Positions 33,886 through 53,276 of a DNA stretch of 64,000 nucleotides are shown piece after piece. This DNA is from Candidatus Hodarchaeota archaeon. Lineage in GTDB: Archaea; Asgardarchaeota; Heimdallarchaeia; Hodarchaeales; Hodarchaeaceae. The stretch is taken from NCBI GenBank assembly GCA_029856365.1, contig JAHQWW010000002.1, positions 69,098-133,097 of the forward strand, written 5' to 3'. The notes beneath the pieces are model-generated. The model saw only the letters and a program-made list of their open reading frames with translations. It had not been told where the DNA came from and made no database searches. The position numbers and the translations under genes are program-made. Every line of letters begins with the position of its first letter. The stretch's first letter is position 1.

Positions 33886-34326
33886 ATGCCCGTTATTGAC
33901 ACCATAATCCTCTTTTCCGCAGCAAATACAGAACATAAATGGCATTTGATCGGAAAATCAGCCTTAAACTGCGTTAATACCTGGGATAATTGGTGGATTC
34001 CTTCTTTCACACTGGTAGAATTTGATCTTGTTTTAAAAAGTCGAGGATTTTCAAATGAAGAAAGAATGGAAAAATACAGCTTACTCATCCATGATTTTCC
34101 TAATATCCTGAATAAATCCTACCCGATTACTCCCCTTGTATTACATGAAACAAGCCGCTTAGAGGAGGTGTACGAGTTAGATTATTTTGACGCTGGAATC
34201 GCTGCTACCTCTTTGGCCGTAGATGGAAAAATTGCGACTAATGATCAACAATTAAAACGAATAACCGAAATTGAATCGCTATGGGAAGAAATTCTGAACC
34301 AACGAGGAAGGGGAAATAACAATTAG
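33886..34326 (+). CDS. vapC: PIN-domain VapC toxin
   Basis: VIDT, LVEF, LDYFDAGIAAT, IATND. Confidence 0.88.
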   Translation: MPVIDTIILFSAANTEHKWHLIGKSALNCVNTWDNWWIPSFTLVEFDLVLKSRGFSNEERMEKYSLLIHDFPNILNKSYPITPLVLHETSRLEEVYELDYFDAGIAATSLAVDGKIATNDQQLKRITEIESLWEEILNQRGRGNNN

Positions 34327-36479: not shown

Positions 36480-36701
36480 ATGAAGACTACAATTCAAATA
36501 GATAAAGAAGTTTTGAATGCATTAAAAGAACTGAAGAAGCATTCACGACAAACCTATAATGAGCTCATTTCTGAGTTAATTACTTTTTATAAAAATGTAT
36601 CTATCAACAACCAATATGATGAGTTTCTTCACAAGATCCAACAAGAAAAAATGAAAGAATTATGGGATAATAAAGAGGACGAGGCGTGGGAAAATGTATA
36701 A
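36480..36701 (+). CDS. RHH-type antitoxin
   Basis: TTIQIDKEVLNALKELK...TYNELISEL; acidic LWDNKEDEAW tail. Confidence 0.8.
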   Translation: MKTTIQIDKEVLNALKELKKHSRQTYNELISELITFYKNVSINNQYDEFLHKIQQEKMKELWDNKEDEAWENV

Positions 36702-37008
36702 AGCTGGAGACGTGATTCTTGCTCAGATTCAGTTTACAGATACCTTCGAAATTAAAAAACGCCCATCAGTTATATTATTTGAGGAATTTGATAATGTTAT
36801 TGTGGCAGGAATTACTAGTAATTTGAGAATGGAAGGAATATCGTTATCAAAAGATGAGGGGGCAATTAAAGATAGTATTATTAAGCTGAATTATATTTTT
36901 ACTATTTCTACTAAAATGATTGTTAAAAAACTCTTCTCCTTAAGCATCACGAAGAAAAAACTTCTTTATCAAGAACTGACCAACCGTTTGAGCGAGCTCA
37001 TCAACTGA
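36694..37008 (+). CDS. mazF: PemK/MazF family toxin
   Basis: GDVILAQIQFTD..KKRPSVIL...VAGITS. Confidence 0.88.
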   Translation: MYKAGDVILAQIQFTDTFEIKKRPSVILFEEFDNVIVAGITSNLRMEGISLSKDEGAIKDSIIKLNYIFTISTKMIVKKLFSLSITKKKLLYQELTNRLSELIN

Positions 37009-38224: not shown

Positions 38225-38857
38225 TTAGCTTCTCCTCTTTTTCATAAAGACCTGTATTTTAGCTATCTCCTCCCTATCCTGATCTTCTAATGCTTCATTA
38301 ATAACATATATCTCGTTTTTTATTTCTTTGATTAAGATATTATCCAGAGCATTAACTCGTTTTTGTGTTTTTCTGATTTGTTTTCCTATTTTTCTTAAGA
38401 GGCTTTCTTCAGAAGCTAGCCTAACTATTATAGAAATCAATTGTTCAAAGATTTTGGTTACAGCATCTATTTTACTACTTGAATCAAGAAGTGATAGCTG
38501 TCTTTTTCTTAATGTGCTTATTTTTCCCTCCAGTTTTAATACAGAAGCTTTGACACCACTAATATTTGTGTTCATCAGAGAAACAAAGAAATGCTCTTTA
38601 GAACTGAACGCTGCATATTCTATCTTTCTTCCCTCGCTACCTTGAACTAAAGAAAGCATAATTCGGGCTTGGTTCGTTTGTTCTAGTACTCTAATCCGTA
38701 ATTCAACAAGTGCCTTTCCTCTTCTGGTAAGCTCATCAATAAGTGAGGTAACTCGATCTTCTAAAAGATCTCGTGCAGAGATTGCTGTTTTCAGTTCCTC
38801 TTTTTTTTTCTGAAGTTCTAGCTGTGTAATATTAATAGTAGAACTCATTTTAAGCAT
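38225..38857 (-). CDS. atpD: A/V-type ATPase subunit D
   Basis: LLEDR, IRKTQKRVNALDNILI, LEDQDREE. Confidence 0.92.
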   Translation of the reverse strand: MLKMSSTINITQLELQKKKEELKTAISARDLLEDRVTSLIDELTRRGKALVELRIRVLEQTNQARIMLSLVQGSEGRKIEYAAFSSKEHFFVSLMNTNISGVKASVLKLEGKISTLRKRQLSLLDSSSKIDAVTKIFEQLISIIVRLASEESLLRKIGKQIRKTQKRVNALDNILIKEIKNEIYVINEALEDQDREEIAKIQVFMKKRRS

Positions 38858-38875
38858 CCATCTTATTGCAAGCTT

Positions 38876-40249
38876 TTAATAATAGTGATCGACAACGCTT
38901 TTTTTGATTCGTGTAAGTTCATCCTTGGGAATCATTCGTAATAATTCCCAAGACAAATCAAGACTATTTTCGATGGTTCTTCTGACCTGACCTTGATGAA
39001 TGAATCTTTGTTCAAACTCATCTGTAAACTTTAAGAAACGTCTATCCTTGTCCGAAAGAGAATCTACTCCTGCGATAGCAACTAATTGTCGTAGTTGAAC
39101 ACCTTTGGCATAAAATGCGTATAGTTGATCTGCTATTTCTCTATGATCTGCTCTTGTTTTCCCCTTACCGATGCCTGCATTCATGAGACGACTTAGTGAA
39201 GGTAATGGATTAATTGGAGGGTAATAACCCATATTGAAGAGATTACGGTCCAAAAAGATCTGTCCCTCAGTAATATAACCTGTTAAATCAGGAACAGGAT
39301 GAGTAATATCATCATTTGGCATAGTTAATACAGGAAAAAGAGTTACACTTCCCTTTTTAGAAATAATTCTTCCGACTCTTTCATATATCGTAGCTAAATC
39401 GGTGTATAAGTAACCCGGATAACCTAATCTACCAGGAAACTCTTCACGTGCAGCAGACACTTCTCTTAAAGCCTCTGCATAGTTGAGTATATCTGTTAAT
39501 ATTACCAACGAATGATATCCCTTTTCAAATGCCAAATATTCAGCAATGGTCATAGCTATCCTTGGAATTAATAATCTTTCAATTATCGAATCACTTGCAT
39601 AATTACTAAAGAAAATTAGATTGCTAATTTTTGCATTTTCAAAAGACCTTTGGAAGAACCTCCCATCACGTTCGGTAATCCCCATCGCACCAAATATCAC
39701 AGCAAAATCTGCCTCTTGATTTTTAATTCTAGCTTGAGTGGCAATTTGTGCTGCTACTTCCTTTGTTGGAAGTCCTGCTCCACTGAAGATTGGAAGTTTT
39801 TGACCCAAAACTAAAGAGTTAAGCATATCAATTGAAGAAATTCCTGTTTCTATAAAATCTCCCGGTTTAATTCTTTCAGCGGGATTAATTGGATTTCCAG
39901 TGACCTCATGAAAAGCTTCAGGTAGTATTTCTCCTTGACCATCTATCGGTAACCCCCTTCCGTTCATTGTTCTTCCAAGCATAGCTTCCGCTACCCCAAG
40001 TTTAAAGACATCTTGACTGAATGTTACTTTAACACTATCCTTTTCAATTAATTCTGTACCTTCAAATACTTGAATTATGGTTAGATTAGGATCAGCTTGC
40101 AGGACTTGTCCTTGTCGGATTTCCCCATTAGACATTTCAATATTGATCATCTCTTCAAATAAGACTCGTTTAATATTATTTAAGAACAATAATGGCCCTT
40201 GAATCCGCTCAACTGTTTGATATGTAACACTTTCTAAACCTGTATTCAT
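38876..40249 (-). CDS. atpB: A/V-type ATPase subunit B
   Basis: GQKLPIFSG, GYPGYLYTDLATIYER, DDITHPVPDLTGYITEGQ. Confidence 0.98.
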   Translation of the reverse strand: MNTGLESVTYQTVERIQGPLLFLNNIKRVLFEEMINIEMSNGEIRQGQVLQADPNLTIIQVFEGTELIEKDSVKVTFSQDVFKLGVAEAMLGRTMNGRGLPIDGQGEILPEAFHEVTGNPINPAERIKPGDFIETGISSIDMLNSLVLGQKLPIFSGAGLPTKEVAAQIATQARIKNQEADFAVIFGAMGITERDGRFFQRSFENAKISNLIFFSNYASDSIIERLLIPRIAMTIAEYLAFEKGYHSLVILTDILNYAEALREVSAAREEFPGRLGYPGYLYTDLATIYERVGRIISKKGSVTLFPVLTMPNDDITHPVPDLTGYITEGQIFLDRNLFNMGYYPPINPLPSLSRLMNAGIGKGKTRADHREIADQLYAFYAKGVQLRQLVAIAGVDSLSDKDRRFLKFTDEFEQRFIHQGQVRRTIENSLDLSWELLRMIPKDELTRIKKSVVDHYY

Positions 40250-40264
40250 AAAAAAGCCTCATTT

Positions 40265-42094
40265 TCACGCTTTTCGCTTTCTATAAGCTTCTAACTTCTC
40301 TGCAACAATATTTCGGATCTCTGAGATCTGTTTTAAATTTTCTAGCTCTTTCATTCTGTTAACACGTTCAAATATACTTTTTTCTTTTTCAAAAATCTCC
40401 TTAGTAGTATGACCAGATCTAATCGCACTTGTAATCCATTCATATGTCATTTGAAGTGTTAGAGCCATTTCATATGTCTTCTTAATAGGACAATATCCAT
40501 CAATATCGGAAAAAGCAGATTGTCGTAAAAAACCATCTCGTATTAGTTCAGCAGCCGCTAGGGTACCAAGCTGTGGTTCTGTTAATGTATCCTTACCAAT
40601 TAGTCTGACAATCTTCTCGATTTCTTCCTCATCTTTTAAAATCTTAACTATTACTTTCCTACTTTCTCTCCAATTTCCTCCAATATCAGGGTATTTGTCC
40701 CAATAAGCTAGGATTTCATTAAGATATTGTGTAAAACTAATTTCAAAATTTATTGCAGGGTAATGTCGTTGTCTGGCAAGATTAACATCAAGACCCCATA
40801 ATGCATTGGCATATCTAAGCGTGTACTGGCTTATAGGATCCGAAAAGTCCCCACCTGGAGGTGAAACCGCTCCTATTACTGTAACACTTCCGATTCTATT
40901 TGATTGTGCTTTCACTTTTCCGGCACGTTCATAAAACCGTCCAATAAGTTTGGGAAGATAACTTGGATATCCTTTCTCACCAGGAACTTCCTCTAATCGT
41001 ACACTCACTTCTCTAAGTGCTTCAGCCCAACGACTAGTTGAATCTGCAGTCACCGCAACTTTATAGCCCATATCACGGAAATACTCAGCCAAAGTCATTC
41101 CTGAATAAATTGAGGCTTCTCGGGCAGCAACAGGCATATTAGAGGTATTTGCAATTATTATTGATCTTTCAGACATCGGTTTTCCAGTCAAAGGATCATT
41201 TAATTGCTTGAATTCAGCTAAAACATCAGCGATCTCGTTACCTCTTTCCCCACATAAAGTTAATATCGCTATATGGGCACTAGAAAACTTTGCTAAAGTT
41301 TGTTCAAGTATGGTTTTACCAGTTCCAAAACCTCCAGGAATCATTGCTGTTCCTCCATCAATTATTGGATAGAGAAAATCTAGTACCCTTTGTCCAGTTA
41401 TAAAAGGTTGAGTGTCAATCACTCTTTGTTGGAATGGTCGGGGGATCCTTACAGACCAATAGTGATAAAGCATAATAGGATTCCCATCTGTATAATGACC
41501 AATCGGGTCTTCGATCGTAAATTTCCCCTCATTTATTTCTTTTATAACGCCTTGACGATTAGGGGGGTTAAGAATATAATGTTTAATTGCATCCGTTTCT
41601 TGTACATAACCTAAAATTTCACCTCCGTTGAGTTTATCCTTAGATTTAACCTCAATTGTATTATATTTCAATTCAGCAAACTTTTCACCTATTTCTATCT
41701 CTTTAATATTTTCATATTCAGGAATAAAATGCCACTGCTTTTTAATTGGTAAAGGATTTCCACTCATACCTTTTTCGATAAAAAGATAGCCTGATCCTTT
41801 CAACTGTCTTTGAACACCGTCAATGATATTTCCCAGAAGCCCAGGACCTAATTTCAGACTCAATGGTCTATTAAGGTCTTGAATTGGTTCTCCAATACCC
41901 AATCCAGAGGTTTTTTCATATACTTGAATAATTGTTTTGTTTCCTTGGATTTGTACTATCTCCCCAATGAGCTTATCCTCGCCCACATAGACTATTGAAT
42001 TCTTTTTTGATCTTTTTAGACCTTCTGCATGAACCACAGGTCCAATCACCCTTATAATTCTCCCCAAATTGTTACTTGAGCTCATTCTTCTCAC
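40265..42094 (-). CDS. atpA: A/V-type ATPase subunit A
   Basis: GGFGTGKT, CGERGNE, ANTSNMPVAAREAS, VSPPGGDFSDP; no intein. Confidence 0.98.
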   Translation of the reverse strand: MRRMSSSNNLGRIIRVIGPVVHAEGLKRSKKNSIVYVGEDKLIGEIVQIQGNKTIIQVYEKTSGLGIGEPIQDLNRPLSLKLGPGLLGNIIDGVQRQLKGSGYLFIEKGMSGNPLPIKKQWHFIPEYENIKEIEIGEKFAELKYNTIEVKSKDKLNGGEILGYVQETDAIKHYILNPPNRQGVIKEINEGKFTIEDPIGHYTDGNPIMLYHYWSVRIPRPFQQRVIDTQPFITGQRVLDFLYPIIDGGTAMIPGGFGTGKTILEQTLAKFSSAHIAILTLCGERGNEIADVLAEFKQLNDPLTGKPMSERSIIIANTSNMPVAAREASIYSGMTLAEYFRDMGYKVAVTADSTSRWAEALREVSVRLEEVPGEKGYPSYLPKLIGRFYERAGKVKAQSNRIGSVTVIGAVSPPGGDFSDPISQYTLRYANALWGLDVNLARQRHYPAINFEISFTQYLNEILAYWDKYPDIGGNWRESRKVIVKILKDEEEIEKIVRLIGKDTLTEPQLGTLAAAELIRDGFLRQSAFSDIDGYCPIKKTYEMALTLQMTYEWITSAIRSGHTTKEIFEKEKSIFERVNRMKELENLKQISEIRNIVAEKLEAYRKRKA

Positions 42095-42111
42095 TTATTT
42101 ATGTCGAATCA

Positions 42112-42450
42112 TTAACCAAGTTGAATATGAATTCCACTGCTTTGAACAATAATGTTTTCTACATATTTAATCGTCGCTTGGCTCCTCTTTCTATTGTCAA
42201 GTATTGCTTTAAATGGAGTCGATACAATTACAGGCTTATTCAACGTTTCTAGCTTTTTCTTAAAAGTAACATCAAATTCTGAGTATAGGTAATCCGCGAT
42301 TGCAATTAATCCAATGTCTGATTCCTTTAATAGAGTATCAATTTTTTTCTGAGCAGAAATTGAATCAACAACAGAATATGTTACAATTCCAGCTAATTGA
42401 AATCCAAGGTTTATATCAGCACCAGCGACGATTATAATTCTTTCAGGCAT
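42112..42450 (-). CDS. atpF: A/V-type ATPase subunit F
   Basis: GFQLAGI, DIGLIAI; operon position. Confidence 0.88.
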   Translation of the reverse strand: MPERIIIVAGADINLGFQLAGIVTYSVVDSISAQKKIDTLLKESDIGLIAIADYLYSEFDVTFKKKLETLNKPVIVSTPFKAILDNRKRSQATIKYVENIIVQSSGIHIQLG

Positions 42451-43552
42451 AAATTATCCTTCTAGCAAGTAATTGGGGATTAATTCTACCATGAATACCA
42501 TAGATAATAATTTCTAAATTTCTCAATTCAGCAATCAAACTGTAATAATAGGAAATTAATACATTGAGCTTCATTGAAAAATCATACTTTTTCTTCATTT
42601 GGTATCTAATGAATTCTCTTTCTAATTTTGTTTCATAGTCCAATTCTTGAATCCCTATTTCTTTATAAACCTCTGAAATAGAAATTTTCGAAAATGGAGA
42701 TCTACCAAGTATTTCTGATATTTTTTCGAAATCACCATTTTCTAAATAACCAGAAATCCTTCGAATGTCAAATTTTTCTCCTCCAGGAATAAAAATTTCT
42801 CTCGGAGGGTATACAATAACACTAGAAGGCTCGAATCTGTATGTTCGAATCCATCGTAAAGCAATTTTGATATTCTCGTGATCAATTTCCTCTTGAACTA
42901 GTTTTAAAAAGGCATTTCTTCTTGTAAGGTTAAAAATAGATCTATCATTAAATGTTTTTAAAAGATCAATAATTTTGGAATAATAAAATTTGTTTAATAG
43001 GTTTTCAGTATGCCATTCCTTGTTTTCAAGATTTATTTCATTAATTTGTGTTAATATATTACAAAAAGTTGACTTTTTTGCACATAATAATTTTATGAGA
43101 CCCTCTAAATTTGTTGTTGTGAAAAGATCTAATAGATCCGAGGCGTTTAGATCTCCAATAGGGAGACAATGGTTACAAGCTGTTAGGAAATTTCGCCGTT
43201 CTTTAAGTGGAATAGAGCTATTCAATGTTCTGATAGCAATTTTAATATTAAAGACATCCCAATATCTTAGCAACCACGAGATACAATCTGAATAAGGTTG
43301 ACTAACAATATGTTTAATAATCTCTATTTGGTTGCGAAAATAAAAAACAATCGCTTGATTTAATGTTTTAGCAGGTTGCGTGTTCAGATAAGTCAATTTA
43401 ATATTTTGATTATATCTGGTTCTTGAAAGAACAGTTGCCACATGATCAACTGATGGTTGCTGAAGCAATGTTTCATATTGATCCTTTTTCAGGAGGTAGC
43501 TTTTCATTGCTCGTAAACGTACATTTAACCAATCAAAATTCATTTTACTCAT
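42443..43552 (-). CDS. atpC: A/V-type ATPase subunit C (d/AC39 family)
   Basis: NVRLRAMKSYLL, WDVFNIK, EID..NI, ELRNL. Confidence 0.9.
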   Translation of the reverse strand: MSKMNFDWLNVRLRAMKSYLLKKDQYETLLQQPSVDHVATVLSRTRYNQNIKLTYLNTQPAKTLNQAIVFYFRNQIEIIKHIVSQPYSDCISWLLRYWDVFNIKIAIRTLNSSIPLKERRNFLTACNHCLPIGDLNASDLLDLFTTTNLEGLIKLLCAKKSTFCNILTQINEINLENKEWHTENLLNKFYYSKIIDLLKTFNDRSIFNLTRRNAFLKLVQEEIDHENIKIALRWIRTYRFEPSSVIVYPPREIFIPGGEKFDIRRISGYLENGDFEKISEILGRSPFSKISISEVYKEIGIQELDYETKLEREFIRYQMKKKYDFSMKLNVLISYYYSLIAELRNLEIIIYGIHGRINPQLLARRIIYA

Positions 43553-43594: not shown

Positions 43595-44242
43595 TCATTT
43601 ATTCATCAAATTACTAATAATTCGATCTTCATCCCACGCTGGTTGCGATATAGAGCTAAATAATATTGATCCAAGTTCCTTTTGCAAGACTCTCCGACTA
43701 TTTTCTATACGTTTTGCCAAAGTATTATTTATAACGATTTTTTTGTGGAGAATTTCTATTAAATAACCCCCAAGGAGATTGGGATTTAAATCGTCTAATA
43801 TTGATGTTTTACTTGTGTTTAAATCGACAAGGTGTACGTCTTTGGATAAAACATGAATAATAACTGAATCATTTGATCTAATATATTTATGAGTGATTAT
43901 TTTTAAAGATTGACGAAAGAAATTATTGTAATCTTCTAATGTTATTCTATTTAGTGACCCTTGAAAAGTGTCTAGGAAGTTATTAATTAATTCTAACTTT
44001 TTTAAATTAGTTTTATGTCTAACCTCAAGCTTTTTTTCAGCTAAGGTGTTTCTAATAATTTGAATAATCTCACGATCTGAGGTTTGATTACTATCTTCTA
44101 TTAGTGCTATTCTTTGTCTCTTAAAATCATCCTCAAGTTTTTTAAGAGTTGTATCAAGATCCTGTTGAATTTCAGCTATCAACTGCATTTGCTTTTCTTC
44201 TAAACCAAATAGAACTGACGATTTCTTGTTCATTTTTTCCAC
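43595..44242 (-). CDS. atpE: A/V-type ATPase subunit E
   Basis: N-terminal coiled coil, LGGYLI...INNTL..RI. Confidence 0.8.
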   Translation of the reverse strand: MEKMNKKSSVLFGLEEKQMQLIAEIQQDLDTTLKKLEDDFKRQRIALIEDSNQTSDREIIQIIRNTLAEKKLEVRHKTNLKKLELINNFLDTFQGSLNRITLEDYNNFFRQSLKIITHKYIRSNDSVIIHVLSKDVHLVDLNTSKTSILDDLNPNLLGGYLIEILHKKIVINNTLAKRIENSRRVLQKELGSILFSSISQPAWDEDRIISNLMNK

Positions 44243-44328: not shown

Positions 44329-44559
44329 TTAGCCTCCACCTATTCCAAACAAGATCATGATAGCTATTACAAAACCAAGGACAACTAATGTTTCAGGAAT
44401 GGCAAGAAGCACTAATGCTAAACCTCTTTCTTCTGGTCTTTCCGCAATTAACCCCGCTACGGCTGAACCAATGTGGGATTGAGCTAAACCAGTTCCCAAT
44501 GCACAAAGTCCAATTGATATTGCTGCAGCAATAAAACCAACATCTGTCATTTTCTTCAC
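44329..44559 (-). CDS. atpK: A/V-type ATPase proteolipid subunit K/c (single hairpin)
   Basis: AQSHIG...AERPE...AIPETLVVLG. Confidence 0.95.
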   Translation of the reverse strand: MKKMTDVGFIAAAISIGLCALGTGLAQSHIGSAVAGLIAERPEERGLALVLLAIPETLVVLGFVIAIMILFGIGGG

Positions 44560-44566
44560 CTAAATT

Positions 44567-46510
44567 TTACTGATTTATTATTTGTGTGTCAATATACCCA
44601 AAGGGTTTATATTCTATTCCACCACCTAGGTAAAAATGGCTCATAAATTCATACATGTTCAAACGTAAAGCTTGAATACTGGGACTTATTATAATTATCA
44701 CGAAATTTAATACGTGTAATGCAAAACCAAAAGGTATTCCAATTACTCCAAGTGTTCCATCAAAGATGAACATGTTGGCGATATTAGCTATAATTATACC
44801 TACTAATCCTATAGCCATAAGTCGAGCAAATGACAATATATTAGTAAGAATTTCAAGAGGTTGAATTACACCTGCTATACCCTCAAACTGTATCATACTT
44901 AGTATTGATAGAAGAAGAATAATCATCATTAGGTAAAGCAATTGCAGATGTAAAAAGATAACATCAATAACACTCAAACCAATTGCAATTAACATTATTA
45001 AAGTTGACAGCGATATTTTTGTCATGTGGGGATCATGTACCATAATTCCATTAATTAGACCAAGTGAAATCGATAATACAATAATGAAATATGCAAAAAC
45101 AAGAGTTATCACAAGATATTCAATTATTGATACAGATCGATCAAATAATGGGTAGAAATCAAAGTTAATGATCTTAAAAACTCTAGATGGGATATCCCCA
45201 AAAAATTCGCCATAAATAACTCCAAAAATCGCAGTAATAAAGCCTGTGTAAACAAGAATCAAAGTTAACTGTTTAATGCTTTCATTTTTCATTTTTTTAT
45301 GAATAATTATGGCGAGGATTATAATAGTGAGAGCATAACCAACATCACCGACCATAAAACCCCAGAATAATGGCCAAAAGAAAGCAATCATAAAAATCGC
45401 ATCATAACTCCCATATTTAGGTTTTCCTAATAAATCAGAAAATAACGCAAATGGTTTTATAATTCGGGGTATTTTTCTGAGAATTGGAACATTCTCATCC
45501 CTTGAATCGACTTTATCAATAAAAATACTTACTTTTTCCCCTAATATTATTTTTAGATCGTCTTGAAAGAAATTCATTTTTGTTTCAGGGAAGTATCCAA
45601 AGATCATGAATGTATACTTTGTTAGTTTCACATGATTGATCAATTCTGTTAAGGAGAGCTTTTCATTAACAATCTGAATAAGCTTGTCTACTACTGGTTT
45701 ATTCTCTAAGATAATATTCTTGATTTTACTTTGTAGTTCTAAGACTTCTATTTCCATTTGTTTTGTCCGTTCAAAATTAATTTCAATAATCATTCTTTTA
45801 ACGGGTCGCTCTAAAGTATCAAAATTTGTCTCAGAGACCATGATTTTATGTTGTTCTACAACTTTGTACACTGCTGATAAATCATGAGCCAGGGCTACAA
45901 GTACCAGATATTTTTCACTCATTGTATTAAGGTATATCTCAACTGGATTTTTACTTTCTTCATTGATTTCGTTCATCAATTGCTCAATGAGCAGTTCTGA
46001 TTTCTCTAAAATAAAAAATGTATATTGTAAAGTTGTATTTTTAGAAAGCTTTTTTAAAAGAGGTTCTAAATTAGATGAATAATCCTTATAAAGTGAATGC
46101 ACATCTAAAATTTTGTTTAATTCAACAATTCTTTCTTGATATCTCTGATAATTCTCAGAAATTTCCCGAATCTTGTAATTTATATAGTTTTTAAACTGCT
46201 TTTCTGAAGTTGGGATATCATCTATGGCTAATGATGAGGTTTTTTTCATTTTCTCTTTCGTAAGCTCTAAATTCGTCTTCAGAATGTTGTTTGAAAGATT
46301 TTCAAGAGAAGTTTTTAAAATACTCAATTCATTTTGTAAATTTAAAATCTCATTGAATGATGAATAGAAACTCTTATTTTCCAGATCCAAAACTAAAGAA
46401 TGTTTAAATTTACCAACCTGAAAAACTTGATTGTCATGTAATACTTTAGTTATTTGTAGAAAATCATCACGCAAGCCAGTAATAGACACTTGATACATAG
46501 GTATAATCAT
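44567..46510 (-). CDS. atpI: A/V-type ATPase subunit I/a
   Basis: PKYG, GFMVGDVGY, YGEFFG, LSFARLMA (essential Arg), LRL..YEF. Confidence 0.95.
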   Translation of the reverse strand: MIIPMYQVSITGLRDDFLQITKVLHDNQVFQVGKFKHSLVLDLENKSFYSSFNEILNLQNELSILKTSLENLSNNILKTNLELTKEKMKKTSSLAIDDIPTSEKQFKNYINYKIREISENYQRYQERIVELNKILDVHSLYKDYSSNLEPLLKKLSKNTTLQYTFFILEKSELLIEQLMNEINEESKNPVEIYLNTMSEKYLVLVALAHDLSAVYKVVEQHKIMVSETNFDTLERPVKRMIIEINFERTKQMEIEVLELQSKIKNIILENKPVVDKLIQIVNEKLSLTELINHVKLTKYTFMIFGYFPETKMNFFQDDLKIILGEKVSIFIDKVDSRDENVPILRKIPRIIKPFALFSDLLGKPKYGSYDAIFMIAFFWPLFWGFMVGDVGYALTIIILAIIIHKKMKNESIKQLTLILVYTGFITAIFGVIYGEFFGDIPSRVFKIINFDFYPLFDRSVSIIEYLVITLVFAYFIIVLSISLGLINGIMVHDPHMTKISLSTLIMLIAIGLSVIDVIFLHLQLLYLMMIILLLSILSMIQFEGIAGVIQPLEILTNILSFARLMAIGLVGIIIANIANMFIFDGTLGVIGIPFGFALHVLNFVIIIISPSIQALRLNMYEFMSHFYLGGGIEYKPFGYIDTQIINQ

Positions 46511-46535: not shown

Positions 46536-46886
46536 TCAAACTTTGATTAGTCTCTTAATCATTAATTCAATCATCCTATCTTTTTTATCAACGATTATCT
46601 TTTCAAGTTGTGAACAATAACTGTTACATTCTCTATCTATCTCTTTGAGGGTTTCTTGGAGCTTGTAGAATACTTCATCCTTCCTTTTCTTCCCACTTGT
46701 TTCAAGTTCTTTTTTTAAATCCTGAAGATCATGTTGGTATTTCCTTTTTACTTCCGAGATCTTCTGTAATTTAGCCATTTGTACTCTATTTATTGCATTT
46801 TGAATTTCTGCTTCTTTTTTATGAATTTCAATGTATAAATTTTCAAGATCTTTATTTGTTTCTCTATTTTCATCCATAATAATCAC
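46536..46886 (-). CDS. atpH: A/V-type ATPase peripheral stalk subunit G/H
   Basis: 116-aa charged coiled coil directly upstream of subunit I. Confidence 0.7.
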   Translation of the reverse strand: MIIMDENRETNKDLENLYIEIHKKEAEIQNAINRVQMAKLQKISEVKRKYQHDLQDLKKELETSGKKRKDEVFYKLQETLKEIDRECNSYCSQLEKIIVDKKDRMIELMIKRLIKV

Positions 46887-46914: not shown

Positions 46915-47916
46915 TTATTTTGTTCCAGGAGATATTGGTTCAACATTAAAATTTATTTTTGATTCGAATTCCTCCTTTAACTGCAATTGAAAGGTCTCAA
47001 TATCTGAAGTTAAGAGAATTCCAGTCACAAAAAAAACAAAATTACTGATATATATATTTCCACTAATTTTTTCCAAGATTTCCAATTTTCTTTCTAATTC
47101 AGGGATAATAACCCTTAATAGTCCTTTATATTCTTTAGCTAGTGAAGCTAGTTGATCATAAAGACTTGTTAGCTCTGATTCGATAGTATCAAGGTGTTCA
47201 TGGATTTCTACAACTGCTTCATGAACTGAAACGTCTTCATATTCCTCTGGCACTTCCATGGGACTACTAATACGCTCTTGTTTAAAAAAATCAAAAATAT
47301 TTGAAAGGTCCTCTTCCAAAATAATTAGAGCTGTTATCTTATCATCTATTACTTCTTCGTATATTTCTACTTCGTCACTACTTGCCTCTCTAATTTTTTC
47401 TATTATAGTGTCAAGTTTAAAACTAGTTTTATCAATAAAGAATACATCATAGTCTTTATAGCTATGTTTTGCCAGTTCATCAATAAGCGGTTTGATTTTT
47501 TTCATAATGTCCTTATATCTGTTGAAAATGAGTAATTTGTGCCTTAAAACATTTATACGGATTTGTACCGAGTGAAATCGATGTTGAATTTCTTTAGTTT
47601 TTTTTTCAGTAAAAAGTAAAAGTTCTTCATTTGTTTTGGGCAAACTTTCCTTTAAGAAAGGGGAAAAATTTTTTACTTCAGGTAAATCTATGTTTATAAC
47701 TGATAATTGATGGTAATATTTCTTGAATTGTATATTGAGATCAGATAATTTTTTTTCAACAATATAACCATGCTCAGTAGATAGATTCATTAACACTGAG
47801 TTGTCAAACTTCTCTATTTTAAAATCACTATTTTCAATAAGAAATTCGACAATATCGAATAAATAATCCTCAACTCCCCACAATAGAATCTTAAACTTTT
47901 CTAACGGGTCAGTCAT
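46915..47916 (-). CDS. Free-standing paralogue of the soluble N-terminal domain of ATPase subunit I/a
   Basis: Colinear resemblance to about residues 1-335 of 44567-46510 at start, middle and end; no TM domain. Confidence 0.7.
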   Translation of the reverse strand: MTDPLEKFKILLWGVEDYLFDIVEFLIENSDFKIEKFDNSVLMNLSTEHGYIVEKKLSDLNIQFKKYYHQLSVINIDLPEVKNFSPFLKESLPKTNEELLLFTEKKTKEIQHRFHSVQIRINVLRHKLLIFNRYKDIMKKIKPLIDELAKHSYKDYDVFFIDKTSFKLDTIIEKIREASSDEVEIYEEVIDDKITALIILEEDLSNIFDFFKQERISSPMEVPEEYEDVSVHEAVVEIHEHLDTIESELTSLYDQLASLAKEYKGLLRVIIPELERKLEILEKISGNIYISNFVFFVTGILLTSDIETFQLQLKEEFESKINFNVEPISPGTK

Positions 47917-48066
47917 CGCTGCTTTCTCACAAAACCAAACATTCTTAATATTTATTTGTTAATATTTTTGATTACATTCTTCAATTGTGACGTAAAATCA
48001 GCCATTAGGGTTTCAGCTTCACTTTGAGAAACAGCTTCCACAGTTATACATTATGTGTTTACCTAA

Positions 48067-48288
48067 TTAGTCATAGTCATTTCGAATCGTCTCATATGAT
48101 TCAATTGAGGTGGGAATTTGACCGTATATCGTAAAAGCAGGTATGACCTTATGATGCTCAGTTGAATGAAATGCTAAAATCTTGCATTTCCATGTTTTAT
48201 AGAATTCCACGACCTCGTTTACAGCTTTATGTGCATCTTCAGAACCATCTATAAAGAGTAATATTTTTTTATACGTAATACCTTTCAC
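48067..48288 (-). pseudogene. Truncated universal stress protein (UspA family)
   Basis: YKKILLFIDGSEDAHKA N-terminus; the C-terminal half is missing. Confidence 0.7.
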
Positions 48289-48422
48289 CTTTCACCATTT
48301 TCTAAAACTACAGTAGTTAGGACTCCATGAATCCCTGAATTTCTTTTATTGAAAATCCTATCATGCTTTCTCCTTTCGTTGTTTAGTTGATTTTCATAAT
48401 ATATGAAAAAATAACTATATTA

Positions 48423-48569: not shown

Positions 48570-49337
48570 TTGTCCATTAAAAATCGAAGTGGTATTATGT
48601 CACCAAACAAGAATAAAATACAAATACAGGATAATAGTGATGAAATCAAATCAAAAATTTGGTTAAAAATTTTCAATAGCAAGATTAAGTTCCGTATTCT
48701 TCAACTTCTCTTTGTGTATGGAGAGCTTAGTCTAACTGAGCTTAGAAAACATATGAATAAGAGTAAACCTGCCTTATATCATCATTTACGAAAAATGATT
48801 GATTTTGGAGTGGTCAAGGTTTCTAAGGAAGAAAAAGTTCGTGGTTCAATCATGGCTAAATACTATAAGCTTGATGAACAAATAGCTCTAAAAATTCAAT
48901 TAATTTCTGATGAAGAATTAAAGAAAATCGAAAATCCAAAAAAACGTCTTAAAACACTTGAAAGTATGATTGATACTTATAAAAGCTCAATATCTTTATT
49001 CAGAAAAAAAATGGACATACTTGATCTTTATACAGACTTTTTAGAGAAAGAAGTACAGGCTAGAGAAGATTCTGATTTGTATCACCTCGATTTTCAGCGA
49101 CTGATCTCTGATTATAATATTGAGTTTTATGCTCAATATCTGACAAAGATACAATATACAAAATTCCTAGAATATTATCAAGATTTTTATTTAAAAATTA
49201 GAGAAATAATCATCAATTATGACTATAGGGAAGATCAAAAGAATGGGAAAATAGCAGAACGACCCTATTTTGTCCTAATGGTGATCATGCCTTTGAAAGA
49301 ATTGTTAGATCTAGAATTAGAAAAAATAAAGAGTTAA
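48570..49337 (+). CDS. ArsR-like winged-helix transcriptional regulator (long form)
   Basis: RILQLL....ELSLTEL....KSKPALYHHLRKM...KYYKL. Confidence 0.85.
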   Translation: MSIKNRSGIMSPNKNKIQIQDNSDEIKSKIWLKIFNSKIKFRILQLLFVYGELSLTELRKHMNKSKPALYHHLRKMIDFGVVKVSKEEKVRGSIMAKYYKLDEQIALKIQLISDEELKKIENPKKRLKTLESMIDTYKSSISLFRKKMDILDLYTDFLEKEVQAREDSDLYHLDFQRLISDYNIEFYAQYLTKIQYTKFLEYYQDFYLKIREIIINYDYREDQKNGKIAERPYFVLMVIMPLKELLDLELEKIKS

Positions 49338-51649: not shown

Positions 51650-53276
51650 CAATTGTGAGATGTGCGCGAAATTCTAATTTTTTCTTTTTTGACTTCTCGG
51701 GGGAGATGGAAGAACAATAATCCGACGATAATATGATTATTATTGAGCGAGAGAGGTGAGGAAAACATTCGACGAAAAATGCCCATCACACTGCTCTTGC
51801 TCAGTTATGGGGTGATTGTGACCTCGTTTTTAACTATTGTGTATGTCAGAAGCGAGTATTATAAACACTTGTACCAAAACGTCCTGTGGGATAGTTACTC
51901 ACTGGAAAGAATACGGTTATTTTTTCAAAAGATTGCACCACTGTTAAAGCTGATATATCCCATAGTGGATAAATTAAACAAGAGGAGAGGACGACCAGCA
52001 ACCAATAGACGATTTCAATTACGTTTTGTGATTTGGTGGAAATTTTTTGCTCCTGGACCGCAAAAAACTGCAGTAAATAGACTGAACAAGTCACCAGAAC
52101 TCCAACAAATTCTGGAGGCGCCCGTAGATCCATATACTAGGTCAAGTCTACGTCGGTTCCTCAAAGATGCAGGAGAAGAGGGATTCAGACGAATGGGTTT
52201 TTTACTCGGGTTGAAATTGCTCAAGAAAGGGATAATTGATACCTCAAAAGTTGTTTTAGATTCTTTTCCAGTCTATTCGTATTTGAATATGAAAAAATGT
52301 CTAAAAATCCCAAAATTCAATAAAAAACTGGCGAAGCAATTTTATCAGGAATTAAACCTGAACCACATCATCTCCAAATTCCCAAAACAGCGTGCAAACT
52401 CAGCCCCGTTAGTAGACAAATTAAAAGTCTGGATTCACCAGTATTTGTGGGATATTCCCTCCAATCAACGTAACCACTATTATATTTTTGGGAGAACCAA
52501 TCGAAAGGAGGTACTTGGGCTTGAAAAAGGATGGAAGGCGGCAAAAACCTATCAAGATTTCTTAGCTGTCTTGAAAGCTCTTCCCAACACATCTGAGATC
52601 GAATATGCAACCGTGACAGAAGTGGCGCGTGTACTTCGACAGCTGGGAGTAGCTCTTAAGAGTGCCCAATATCAGCGGATAGAAGCCCTTCGTTTCGTGT
52701 TCCATACTCCTCATCGTCTTAAAGATCCAACTATCACCTTAAATTATTGTGCTCCCAAAGATCAACATTTTATGGGACGTGGGGGATTGTTGGCAATATT
52801 ACCTTCCTTAGGAATACCACTATTCTTACAGCTAACTGCAAAGTACAAGCAAAGTGAAGAATCAATTCGAACATTTCTAAAGTCGATGTCTCAACAGTAT
52901 GGAGGACTTTTAAGGGAAATAGAGGTATATGCGGATAGTGAGTTCGGTACCGAGGGAATTAAAGATGCGTTAAAGCGCTTATTTAAGGCCACTCCCTATA
53001 TCGATGTGTATGCTCGGAGTGCTACACGATCTACATTAACAATTGAGCAAAAAAACATCCGTAAGACCGTTGAACGCGTAATTGCCCGTTTAGAAAATAA
53101 TTTCTCCCTTGAACATCCTTCTGTTCTTGGAGATGACTCAGTAGCTATCCATACTCAGCTATGCTTCCTTTGCGATCTGCTTCTTGTTTCGCATAACCTT
53201 TTAACAGGAAATCACACTCACCCCTACTCCCTCTCTTACGTTCGGGGATAAAAGTTTCGAACACCTCTCACCAGGG
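51650..53276 (+). mobile_element. Insertion sequence (DDE transposase, IS5/IS1182-like), about 1.63 kb
   Basis: IRs 51655-51673 and 53253-53271 (15/19); gtatatac on both flanks (51643, 53276), so exact ends and TSD are ambiguous by a few bp. Confidence 0.85.
51743..53251 (+). CDS. DDE transposase
   Basis: RRGRP, VVLDS (D), YADSEF (D), RKTVERVIARL (E). Confidence 0.85.
   Translation: MSERGEENIRRKMPITLLLLSYGVIVTSFLTIVYVRSEYYKHLYQNVLWDSYSLERIRLFFQKIAPLLKLIYPIVDKLNKRRGRPATNRRFQLRFVIWWKFFAPGPQKTAVNRLNKSPELQQILEAPVDPYTRSSLRRFLKDAGEEGFRRMGFLLGLKLLKKGIIDTSKVVLDSFPVYSYLNMKKCLKIPKFNKKLAKQFYQELNLNHIISKFPKQRANSAPLVDKLKVWIHQYLWDIPSNQRNHYYIFGRTNRKEVLGLEKGWKAAKTYQDFLAVLKALPNTSEIEYATVTEVARVLRQLGVALKSAQYQRIEALRFVFHTPHRLKDPTITLNYCAPKDQHFMGRGGLLAILPSLGIPLFLQLTAKYKQSEESIRTFLKSMSQQYGGLLREIEVYADSEFGTEGIKDALKRLFKATPYIDVYARSATRSTLTIEQKNIRKTVERVIARLENNFSLEHPSVLGDDSVAIHTQLCFLCDLLLVSHNLLTGNHTHPYSLSYVRG

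Follow-up and report, generated by a model that had tools for sequence, protein, structure and literature searches.

The N-terminal stator domain of subunit I/a of the rotary ATPases (a-NT) and subunit C of the eukaryotic V-ATPase (Vma5) resemble each other in fold, as has been remarked on previously. In the Thermus enzyme, both lobes of a-NT bind peripheral stalks, one EG stalk each, and in the isolated Vo the a-NT arm touches subunit d through its coiled coil and distal lobe, blocking rotation (PMC7367684). In the eukaryotic enzyme, the head of subunit C binds EG3 tightly, and its foot forms a weak ternary junction with the distal lobe of a-NT and EG2 (PMC3569449, PMC6131620). Subunit C and the third stalk have been called eukaryote-specific, with no homolog of C in A- and F-ATPases (PMC6131620; bioRxiv 10.64898/2026.10.01.756066). 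With respect to additional ATPases in Archaea, the V-type operon of acidophilic and piezophilic Thaumarchaeota is a horizontally acquired second atp operon (PMC6863869).

Here, we analysed a window of 64,000 nucleotides from a genome of the genus Hodarchaeum (Hodarchaeales), in which an ATPase operon carries an extra gene, termed I', that encodes a stand-alone version of this stator domain. I' is like the subunit I N-domain of Thermus thermophilus (6QUM/6R0Z/5GAR chain N) and Meiothermus ruber (3RRK) in its sequence (profile E 2e-37), in its two-lobe barbell and in its operon type, G-I-K-E-C-F-A-B-D. It differs from them in that it is a separate, soluble protein existing alongside a complete subunit I, lacks the membrane domain and no longer carries the proximal-lobe motifs. 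With Vma5/subunit C (PF03223; 1U7L, 4DL0), I' shares a free-standing, soluble state and the a-NT fold; the Vma5 head corresponds to the I' distal lobe, the foot would by topology correspond to its proximal lobe, and a collar role is possible for I'. Unlike Vma5, however, it gives no sequence match to subunit C, its fold match is no better than that of an ordinary subunit I N-domain, and its origin lies in an accessory operon. The second atp operons of Thaumarchaeota are, like the window operon, compact and patchy, and stand alongside the native enzyme or apparently replace it, but they belong to a different clade and host, and no description of an additional stator-arm gene in them turned up in the literature searched.

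Results

An additional stator-domain gene in the window

The cluster reads I'-G-I-K-E-C-F-A-B-D on the minus strand, with the following features:

48067-48288, minus strand: truncated universal stress protein (Usp) ORF, 73 aa
47955-48047, minus strand: phosphomutase remnant (last 31 codons); the gene precedes I' in the relatives L001 and L020
46915-47916, minus strand: I', soluble protein of 333 aa, paralogous to the N-terminal stator domain of subunit I/a (from ORF, BLASTP, hhalign, AF2 model and fold searches)
47776-47916, minus strand: I' proximal lobe, N-terminal part (aa 1-47), family-divergent, kept across orthologs
47227-47463, minus strand: I' distal lobe (aa 152-230), ancestral-like; putative EG-binding site and structural counterpart of the Vma5 head
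46918-47055, minus strand: I' proximal lobe, C-terminal part (aa 288-333), G-W/Y-x-P motif gone
46536-46886, minus strand: subunit G (archaeal H), EG stalk (PF03179 at E 0.002, below cut-off, with position and sister-operon alignment)
44567-46510, minus strand: complete subunit I of 647 aa, carrying both its own N-domain and the membrane domain
45803-46036, minus strand: subunit I distal lobe (aa 159-236), family-divergent, conserved Pro changed to Asn, under purifying selection across orthologs
44329-44559, minus strand: subunit K/c, single hairpin
43595-44242, minus strand: subunit E, EG stalk
38225-43552, minus strand: subunits C(d), F, A, B and D, the remainder of the Thermus-like G-I-K-E-C-F-A-B-D operon

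The I' frame starts with ATG and is intact. Since its 5' side holds just the Usp fragment and the phosphomutase remnant, the intact part of the ATPase cluster starts with I', as the first-pass annotation of this DNA had stated. The protein ends at about residue 336 of subunit I, ahead of the membrane domain, and only 28 bp separate its stop codon from subunit G, so that no membrane-domain remnant trails the gene. Its maximum 19-residue hydropathy (1.63) sits on a predicted beta-strand, and thus no transmembrane helix is indicated. No family was assigned to I' in Pfam and NCBIfam searches; compared with a full member of PF01496, it lacks the C-terminal membrane domain with the ion half-channels, and its end point is identical in all orthologs. 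I' is strongly acidic, with a net charge of -23 against -5 for the N-domain of its own subunit I.

Around the operon, a truncated Usp ORF has taken the place of the phosphomutase gene found ahead of I' in relatives, of which the last 31 codons survive (47955-48345). A gene for an ArsR-type HTH regulator (48570-49337) is divergent from the operon, at the same position in L001 and L020. Immediately 3' of the operon lies a pair of antitoxin-like (DUF7557/VapB) and PemK/MazF-like genes (36480-37008), with a PIN-domain gene nearby (33886-34326); a DDE transposase of 502 aa (PF01609) is encoded at 51743-53251. A promoter and terminator scan remained at chance level.

I' is a paralog of the subunit I N-domain

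Residues 8-314 of I' align with residues 6-320 of its own subunit I at 23% identity (BLASTP, E 2e-18), and the profile-profile comparison of I' with the subunit I N-domain (hhalign) gives a probability of 99.65 and an E-value of 5e-25. The match to subunit I of the sister operon L021 is stronger still (E 2e-41). No meaningful similarity is left between the I' and I genes at the DNA level, which indicates that the duplication is old. The AF2 model of I' (pLDDT 86) is a two-lobe barbell with a long coiled coil, the proximal lobe being built from both termini and the distal lobe spanning about residues 152-230. I' thus has both whole-domain sequence homology to the subunit I/a N-terminal domain and its two-lobe coiled-coil fold. 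These data bear out most of what had been read from the letters alone: an intact, soluble gene of 333 codons colinear with the N-domain of subunit I, three quoted segment pairs (all in register in the BLASTP alignment), an end where the membrane domain would begin, and a sequence highly diverged yet intact (open frame, dN/dS 0.16-0.47).

The fold check against a-NT that had been suggested was also positive, the best match of the I' model being Thermus subunit I (E 3e-13, TM 0.61, Z 13.8). In order, the matches run from Thermus I and Meiothermus 3RRK through eukaryotic subunit a to Vma5 (rank 25). The I' model matches Vma5 (1u7l) over its full length (E 2e-7, TM 0.47, Z 9.7, rmsd 9.8, 275 aligned), and the yeast subunit C head (4dl0) aligns to residues 133-242. 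As a control, a model of the N-domain of the operon's own subunit I was run through the fold search and matched Vma5 about equally (E 7e-7). The head-coiled coil-foot fold of subunit C is therefore found in I' and equally in an ordinary I N-domain, and the likeness of I' to Vma5 is generic and family-wide. At the sequence level, the I' profile finds Thermus and Meiothermus subunit I among PDB sequences (E 1e-37 to 1e-32); up to E 10, subunit C chains are absent from its hits. Neither I' nor 24 relatives match PF03223; this profile found no match in 399 Asgard genomes, the controls likewise being without match.

The window operon is an accessory ATPase

The host genome contains a second, native ATPase, whose genes are scattered: A, with a long insertion, on contig C24, B on C91, I-C-K on C160 and D on C152. 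Of the 21 other genus members, 15 have an ortholog of native B that is at least 89% identical; native B scores 657 bits against Methanosarcina, 620 against yeast and 612 against Thermus. For the B subunit of the window operon, the best score is to Thermus (547) and that to yeast (489) is the lowest among full-length matches. Operons of the window type occur in 7 of 22 genus members and in one genome outside the class, at differing genomic sites. In trees of B and of the I N-domain (I-NT), they form a clade of their own, apart from the native copy, and the accessory I-NT sequences are placed among bacterial and Methanomicrobiales sequences. We infer that the window operon is a patchy, Thermus-like accessory ATPase that was horizontally acquired. 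Because both trees are free of eukaryotic sequences, Vma5 included, it is the bit scores, along with an Asgard-eukaryote signal published for trees of subunit B (bioRxiv 10.1101/2023.04.11.536006), that connect the native copy to eukaryotes.

Several observations concern other ATPase loci. In five Hodarchaeum genomes (G048, G059, G060, G061 and G064; completeness 74-94%), the query used retrieved accessory-type B only and no native B; in these genomes, the native ATPase may have given way to the accessory operon. Native subunit A (L015:6708-10118, G000:C24) has 1136 aa, with an insertion of about 530 aa past the P-loop region that is probably an intein. Many Methanomicrobiales genomes carry two A-ATPase operons face to face (L039, L046, L049, L062, L100 and similar) or an operon beside an opposite-strand subunit I gene (L058, L072).

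Origin, distribution and constraint of I'

In the tree, I', the subunit I of its own operon and that of L021 are grouped at 100/100, inside the accessory clade (100/98), and a topology that places I' with native Asgard I is rejected (p-AU 0.0005). The free tree unites L021 with the own subunit I (94/91); a union of I' with the own subunit I is not rejected (p-AU 0.148). Either I' would have arisen after L021 split off, or L021 would have lost it. On the evidence of the sequences, I' is a local duplication of the 5' half of the subunit I gene in one sub-lineage of the accessory operon; given such an origin, it cannot reasonably be the source of Vma5. Descent in the lineage leading to the eukaryotic V-ATPase is likewise not what the tree, which holds no eukaryotic sequence, and the B-subunit scores indicate for I'.

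Orthologs of I' were found in six other assemblies, full-length or nearly so at 99, 83, 73 and 66% identity, together with partial copies; the gene is therefore not an assembly artefact. Wherever the contig extends far enough, G or G-I lies directly downstream, and the I'-G-I order is conserved in orthologous operons. The upstream side varies: it holds the phosphomutase gene (L001, L020), its remnant and the Usp fragment (window) or no matching sequence (L002). The pairwise dN/dS of I' is 0.21, 0.24, 0.47 and 0.16 at dS up to 1.2, comparable to G (0.44-0.57), I (0.19-0.31) and E (0.54) in the same pairs, and the distal lobe is the part most conserved towards the most distant ortholog (80% identity, dN/dS 0.08). 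I' is a real gene under purifying selection. One ortholog carries the NCBI label Thorarchaeota, by either mislabelling or transfer. Seven sister operons start at G, without I' (G048, G050, G060, G061, G064, G396 and L021); L021 is 72% identical to the window operon in A and 79% in B.

Among 80 GTDB loci with a subunit I of the accessory type, none has an extra N-domain gene. The I-NT profile matched in 119 of 399 Asgard genomes; besides the window, these matches are long frames or contig ends, with one 132-aa frame (G287:C28), and I' itself was found only in the window's own genome among the GTDB Asgard genomes searched. One full I' cluster emerged from 1.84 billion representatives, with L021 subunit I as its next relative, and metagenome pattern scans gave no additional I' loci. 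In the ESM Atlas, a fold search returned full subunit I families only. A feature search there pointed to several unnamed clusters in Bacillota, Thermoplasmatota and Synergistota that share features with a-NT at 250-370 aa; these may be truncated subunits I or stand-alone N-domains.

Candidates for independent I' genes or stand-alone N-domains were rejected when a contig end cut the frame (P0022, G070:C566), when they proved to be subunit I genes interrupted by a stop codon or a frameshift (P0013, P0018) or otherwise split I genes (L052, L086, L112), and in one case when an I' ortholog was broken near a contig end (P0006).

No description of I' was found in the literature searched. As far as these searches reach, it is an undescribed variant of the prokaryotic A/V-ATPase, neither a member of the subunit C family nor its ancestor.

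The two copies diverged in opposite lobes

Each region of I', of its own subunit I and of L021 was scored against 30 outgroup N-domains, a post hoc comparison of a single duplication event. For the distal lobe, the scores are 0.78 for I', 0.29 for the own subunit I and 0.83 for the single-copy L021; for the proximal lobe, they are 0.43, 0.76 and 0.81, respectively. This reciprocal pattern has permutation p-values of 0.002, 0.005 and 0.019 with three outgroup sets, and a Fisher p of 0.02 against L021 alone. It is marginal by a circular-shift null, being reached by 20 of 313, 1 of 301 and 20 of 308 shifts (0.3-6%). The I' distal lobe retains P223 (97% conserved), D191 and E214. From its proximal lobe M5, W/Y300, P302 (a proline invariant in the 30 outgroup domains) and, in most copies, G318 have been lost. 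Conversely, the conserved proline in the distal lobe of the own subunit I is Asn, and this lobe is still under selection across orthologs (dN/dS 0.27-0.41). The N-domain of the own subunit I evolved about 1.9 times as fast as that of L021, against 1.08 times for its membrane domain and 0.97 for B; because A, E and F are also about 2 times faster than in L021, the acceleration is partly operon-wide.

Tandem N-domains in a native Asgard subunit I

In the Heimdallarchaeia family f4 (Heimdallarchaeaceae), the native subunit I has 1042-1070 aa, with tandem N-domains NT1-NT2, and is followed by subunit C(d) (L166:5279-8407, L167-L178; G002-G029). The two domains are present in all 13 loci examined, including two single-contig genomes, with an internal repeat at E 2e-15 to 4e-19. 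NT1 and NT2 form one group (100/100) that falls within the native Asgard sequences and is remote from I', and the NT1 profile gives no subunit C match in the PDB. No tandem NT1-NT2 subunit I was found in the literature searched. Like I', this protein brings an extra, lineage-conserved a-NT to an Asgard rotary ATPase; it differs in being a single fused chain of the native ATPase, of independent origin, and the reciprocal lobe pattern was not reproduced in it (p 0.90).

About 19 f4 genomes (L146-L159, L161, L163, L164; e.g. L147:2229-2657) carry another second ATPase operon, A-B-D-Usp-(214-aa ORF)-I; where the locus reaches that far, the operon encloses a complete universal stress protein gene (PF00582, E 2e-12). 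The 214-aa ORF is probably subunit E, and the Usp could be an ATP-sensing regulator.

Discussion

Our results point to I' as an accessory subunit in the stator collar of the second A/V-ATPase of the cell, where it would divide the work with subunit I, and we give this reading somewhat better than an even chance. The 5' half of the operon's subunit I gene would have been duplicated locally, and the two copies would then have split the work. The membrane-anchored subunit I would keep holding one EG stalk through its conserved proximal lobe, the conserved distal lobe of I' would bind an EG stalk in the manner of the Vma5 head, and the remodelled surfaces, namely the I' proximal lobe on one side and the distal lobe and arm of subunit I on the other, would dock on each other. 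Two outcomes can be considered: a three-stalk collar convergent with eukaryotic subunit C, which is a tentative possibility, or a two-stalk motor whose distal stalk has been taken over by I', which we regard as unlikely.

The opposite changes in the two lobes agree with a convergent collar subunit gripping an EG stalk, and would be compatible with the anchoring of a third such stalk; the independent collar-like subunit proposed by the first-pass annotation is supported to that extent. Against this stand the post hoc nature of a pattern drawn from one duplication event and marginal by the circular-shift null, an acceleration that is partly operon-wide, and the fused f4 duplication, which does not show the pattern. 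Moreover, seven sister operons function without I', and sequence data cannot count stalks.

The same annotation had also offered I' as an ancestral or proto-subunit C in the archaeal lineage closest to eukaryotes. The host is indeed a member of Hodarchaeales, but the operon encodes its accessory ATPase; it is the native enzyme that scores nearer to eukaryotes. That I' descends from, or represents, an archaeal precursor of Vma5 could draw on this host and on the full-length fold match (1u7l). Yet the plain I N-domain model matches Vma5 equally, and the I' profile retrieves Thermus and Meiothermus subunit I and no subunit C. In addition, the operon's B is nearest to Thermus, I' nests with its own subunit I and L021 in the accessory clade, its grouping with native Asgard I is rejected, and the window's own genome is the sole carrier among the GTDB Asgard genomes searched. 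The proposed ancestry is thus hardly credible.

What I' may otherwise do was weighed on the same observations. A protein that is soluble, strongly acidic and encoded first in its operon, that retains one ancestral EG-type lobe and that has a divergent ArsR-type regulator gene upstream in the window and two relatives could be a chaperone or regulator that binds EG without being part of the holoenzyme. While the enzyme is being assembled, or once it has come apart, I' would keep hold of EG on its own or of A3B3DF with EG attached, and so gate a conditionally needed second ATPase. We consider this rather doubtful, although it deserves serious attention; it leaves the remodelling of the subunit I distal lobe and arm in the same lineage unexplained. 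By analogy with Thermus, where the coiled coil and distal lobe that contact d are the very parts in which I' is more ancestral than its own subunit I, I' might instead clamp the free membrane sector and act in trans as a brake on Vo via subunit d. An untethered clamp is, however, less economical than a covalent one, and such a role is improbable. Slightly more improbable still is a decaying truncated duplicate, or a job unrelated to the ATPase. The narrow distribution, the single pair with a dN/dS of 0.47 and the gene remnants just upstream would agree with decay, but the frame is open, length and end point are equal across lineages at dS up to 1.2, constraint equals that of bona fide subunits, and the linkage to G-I is held despite a different upstream gene.

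For the passage from a duplicated a-NT to a separate collar subunit, no living intermediate had been available for study. I' is not the ancestor of subunit C but a natural replicate of such a step, and it comes with a natural control, the sister operon L021 without I', both being compact single operons. Should I' be only an assembly factor, it would represent a modest lineage-specific variant. If it is a collar subunit, the accessory ATPase might, though we would not yet expect it, be a prokaryotic rotary motor with three peripheral stalks, in which a free-standing subunit re-invented subunit C from a duplicated a-NT. Were this three-stalk reading true, then, together with the fused f4 case, the duplication route proposed for subunit C would have been taken at least twice independently in Heimdallarchaeia.
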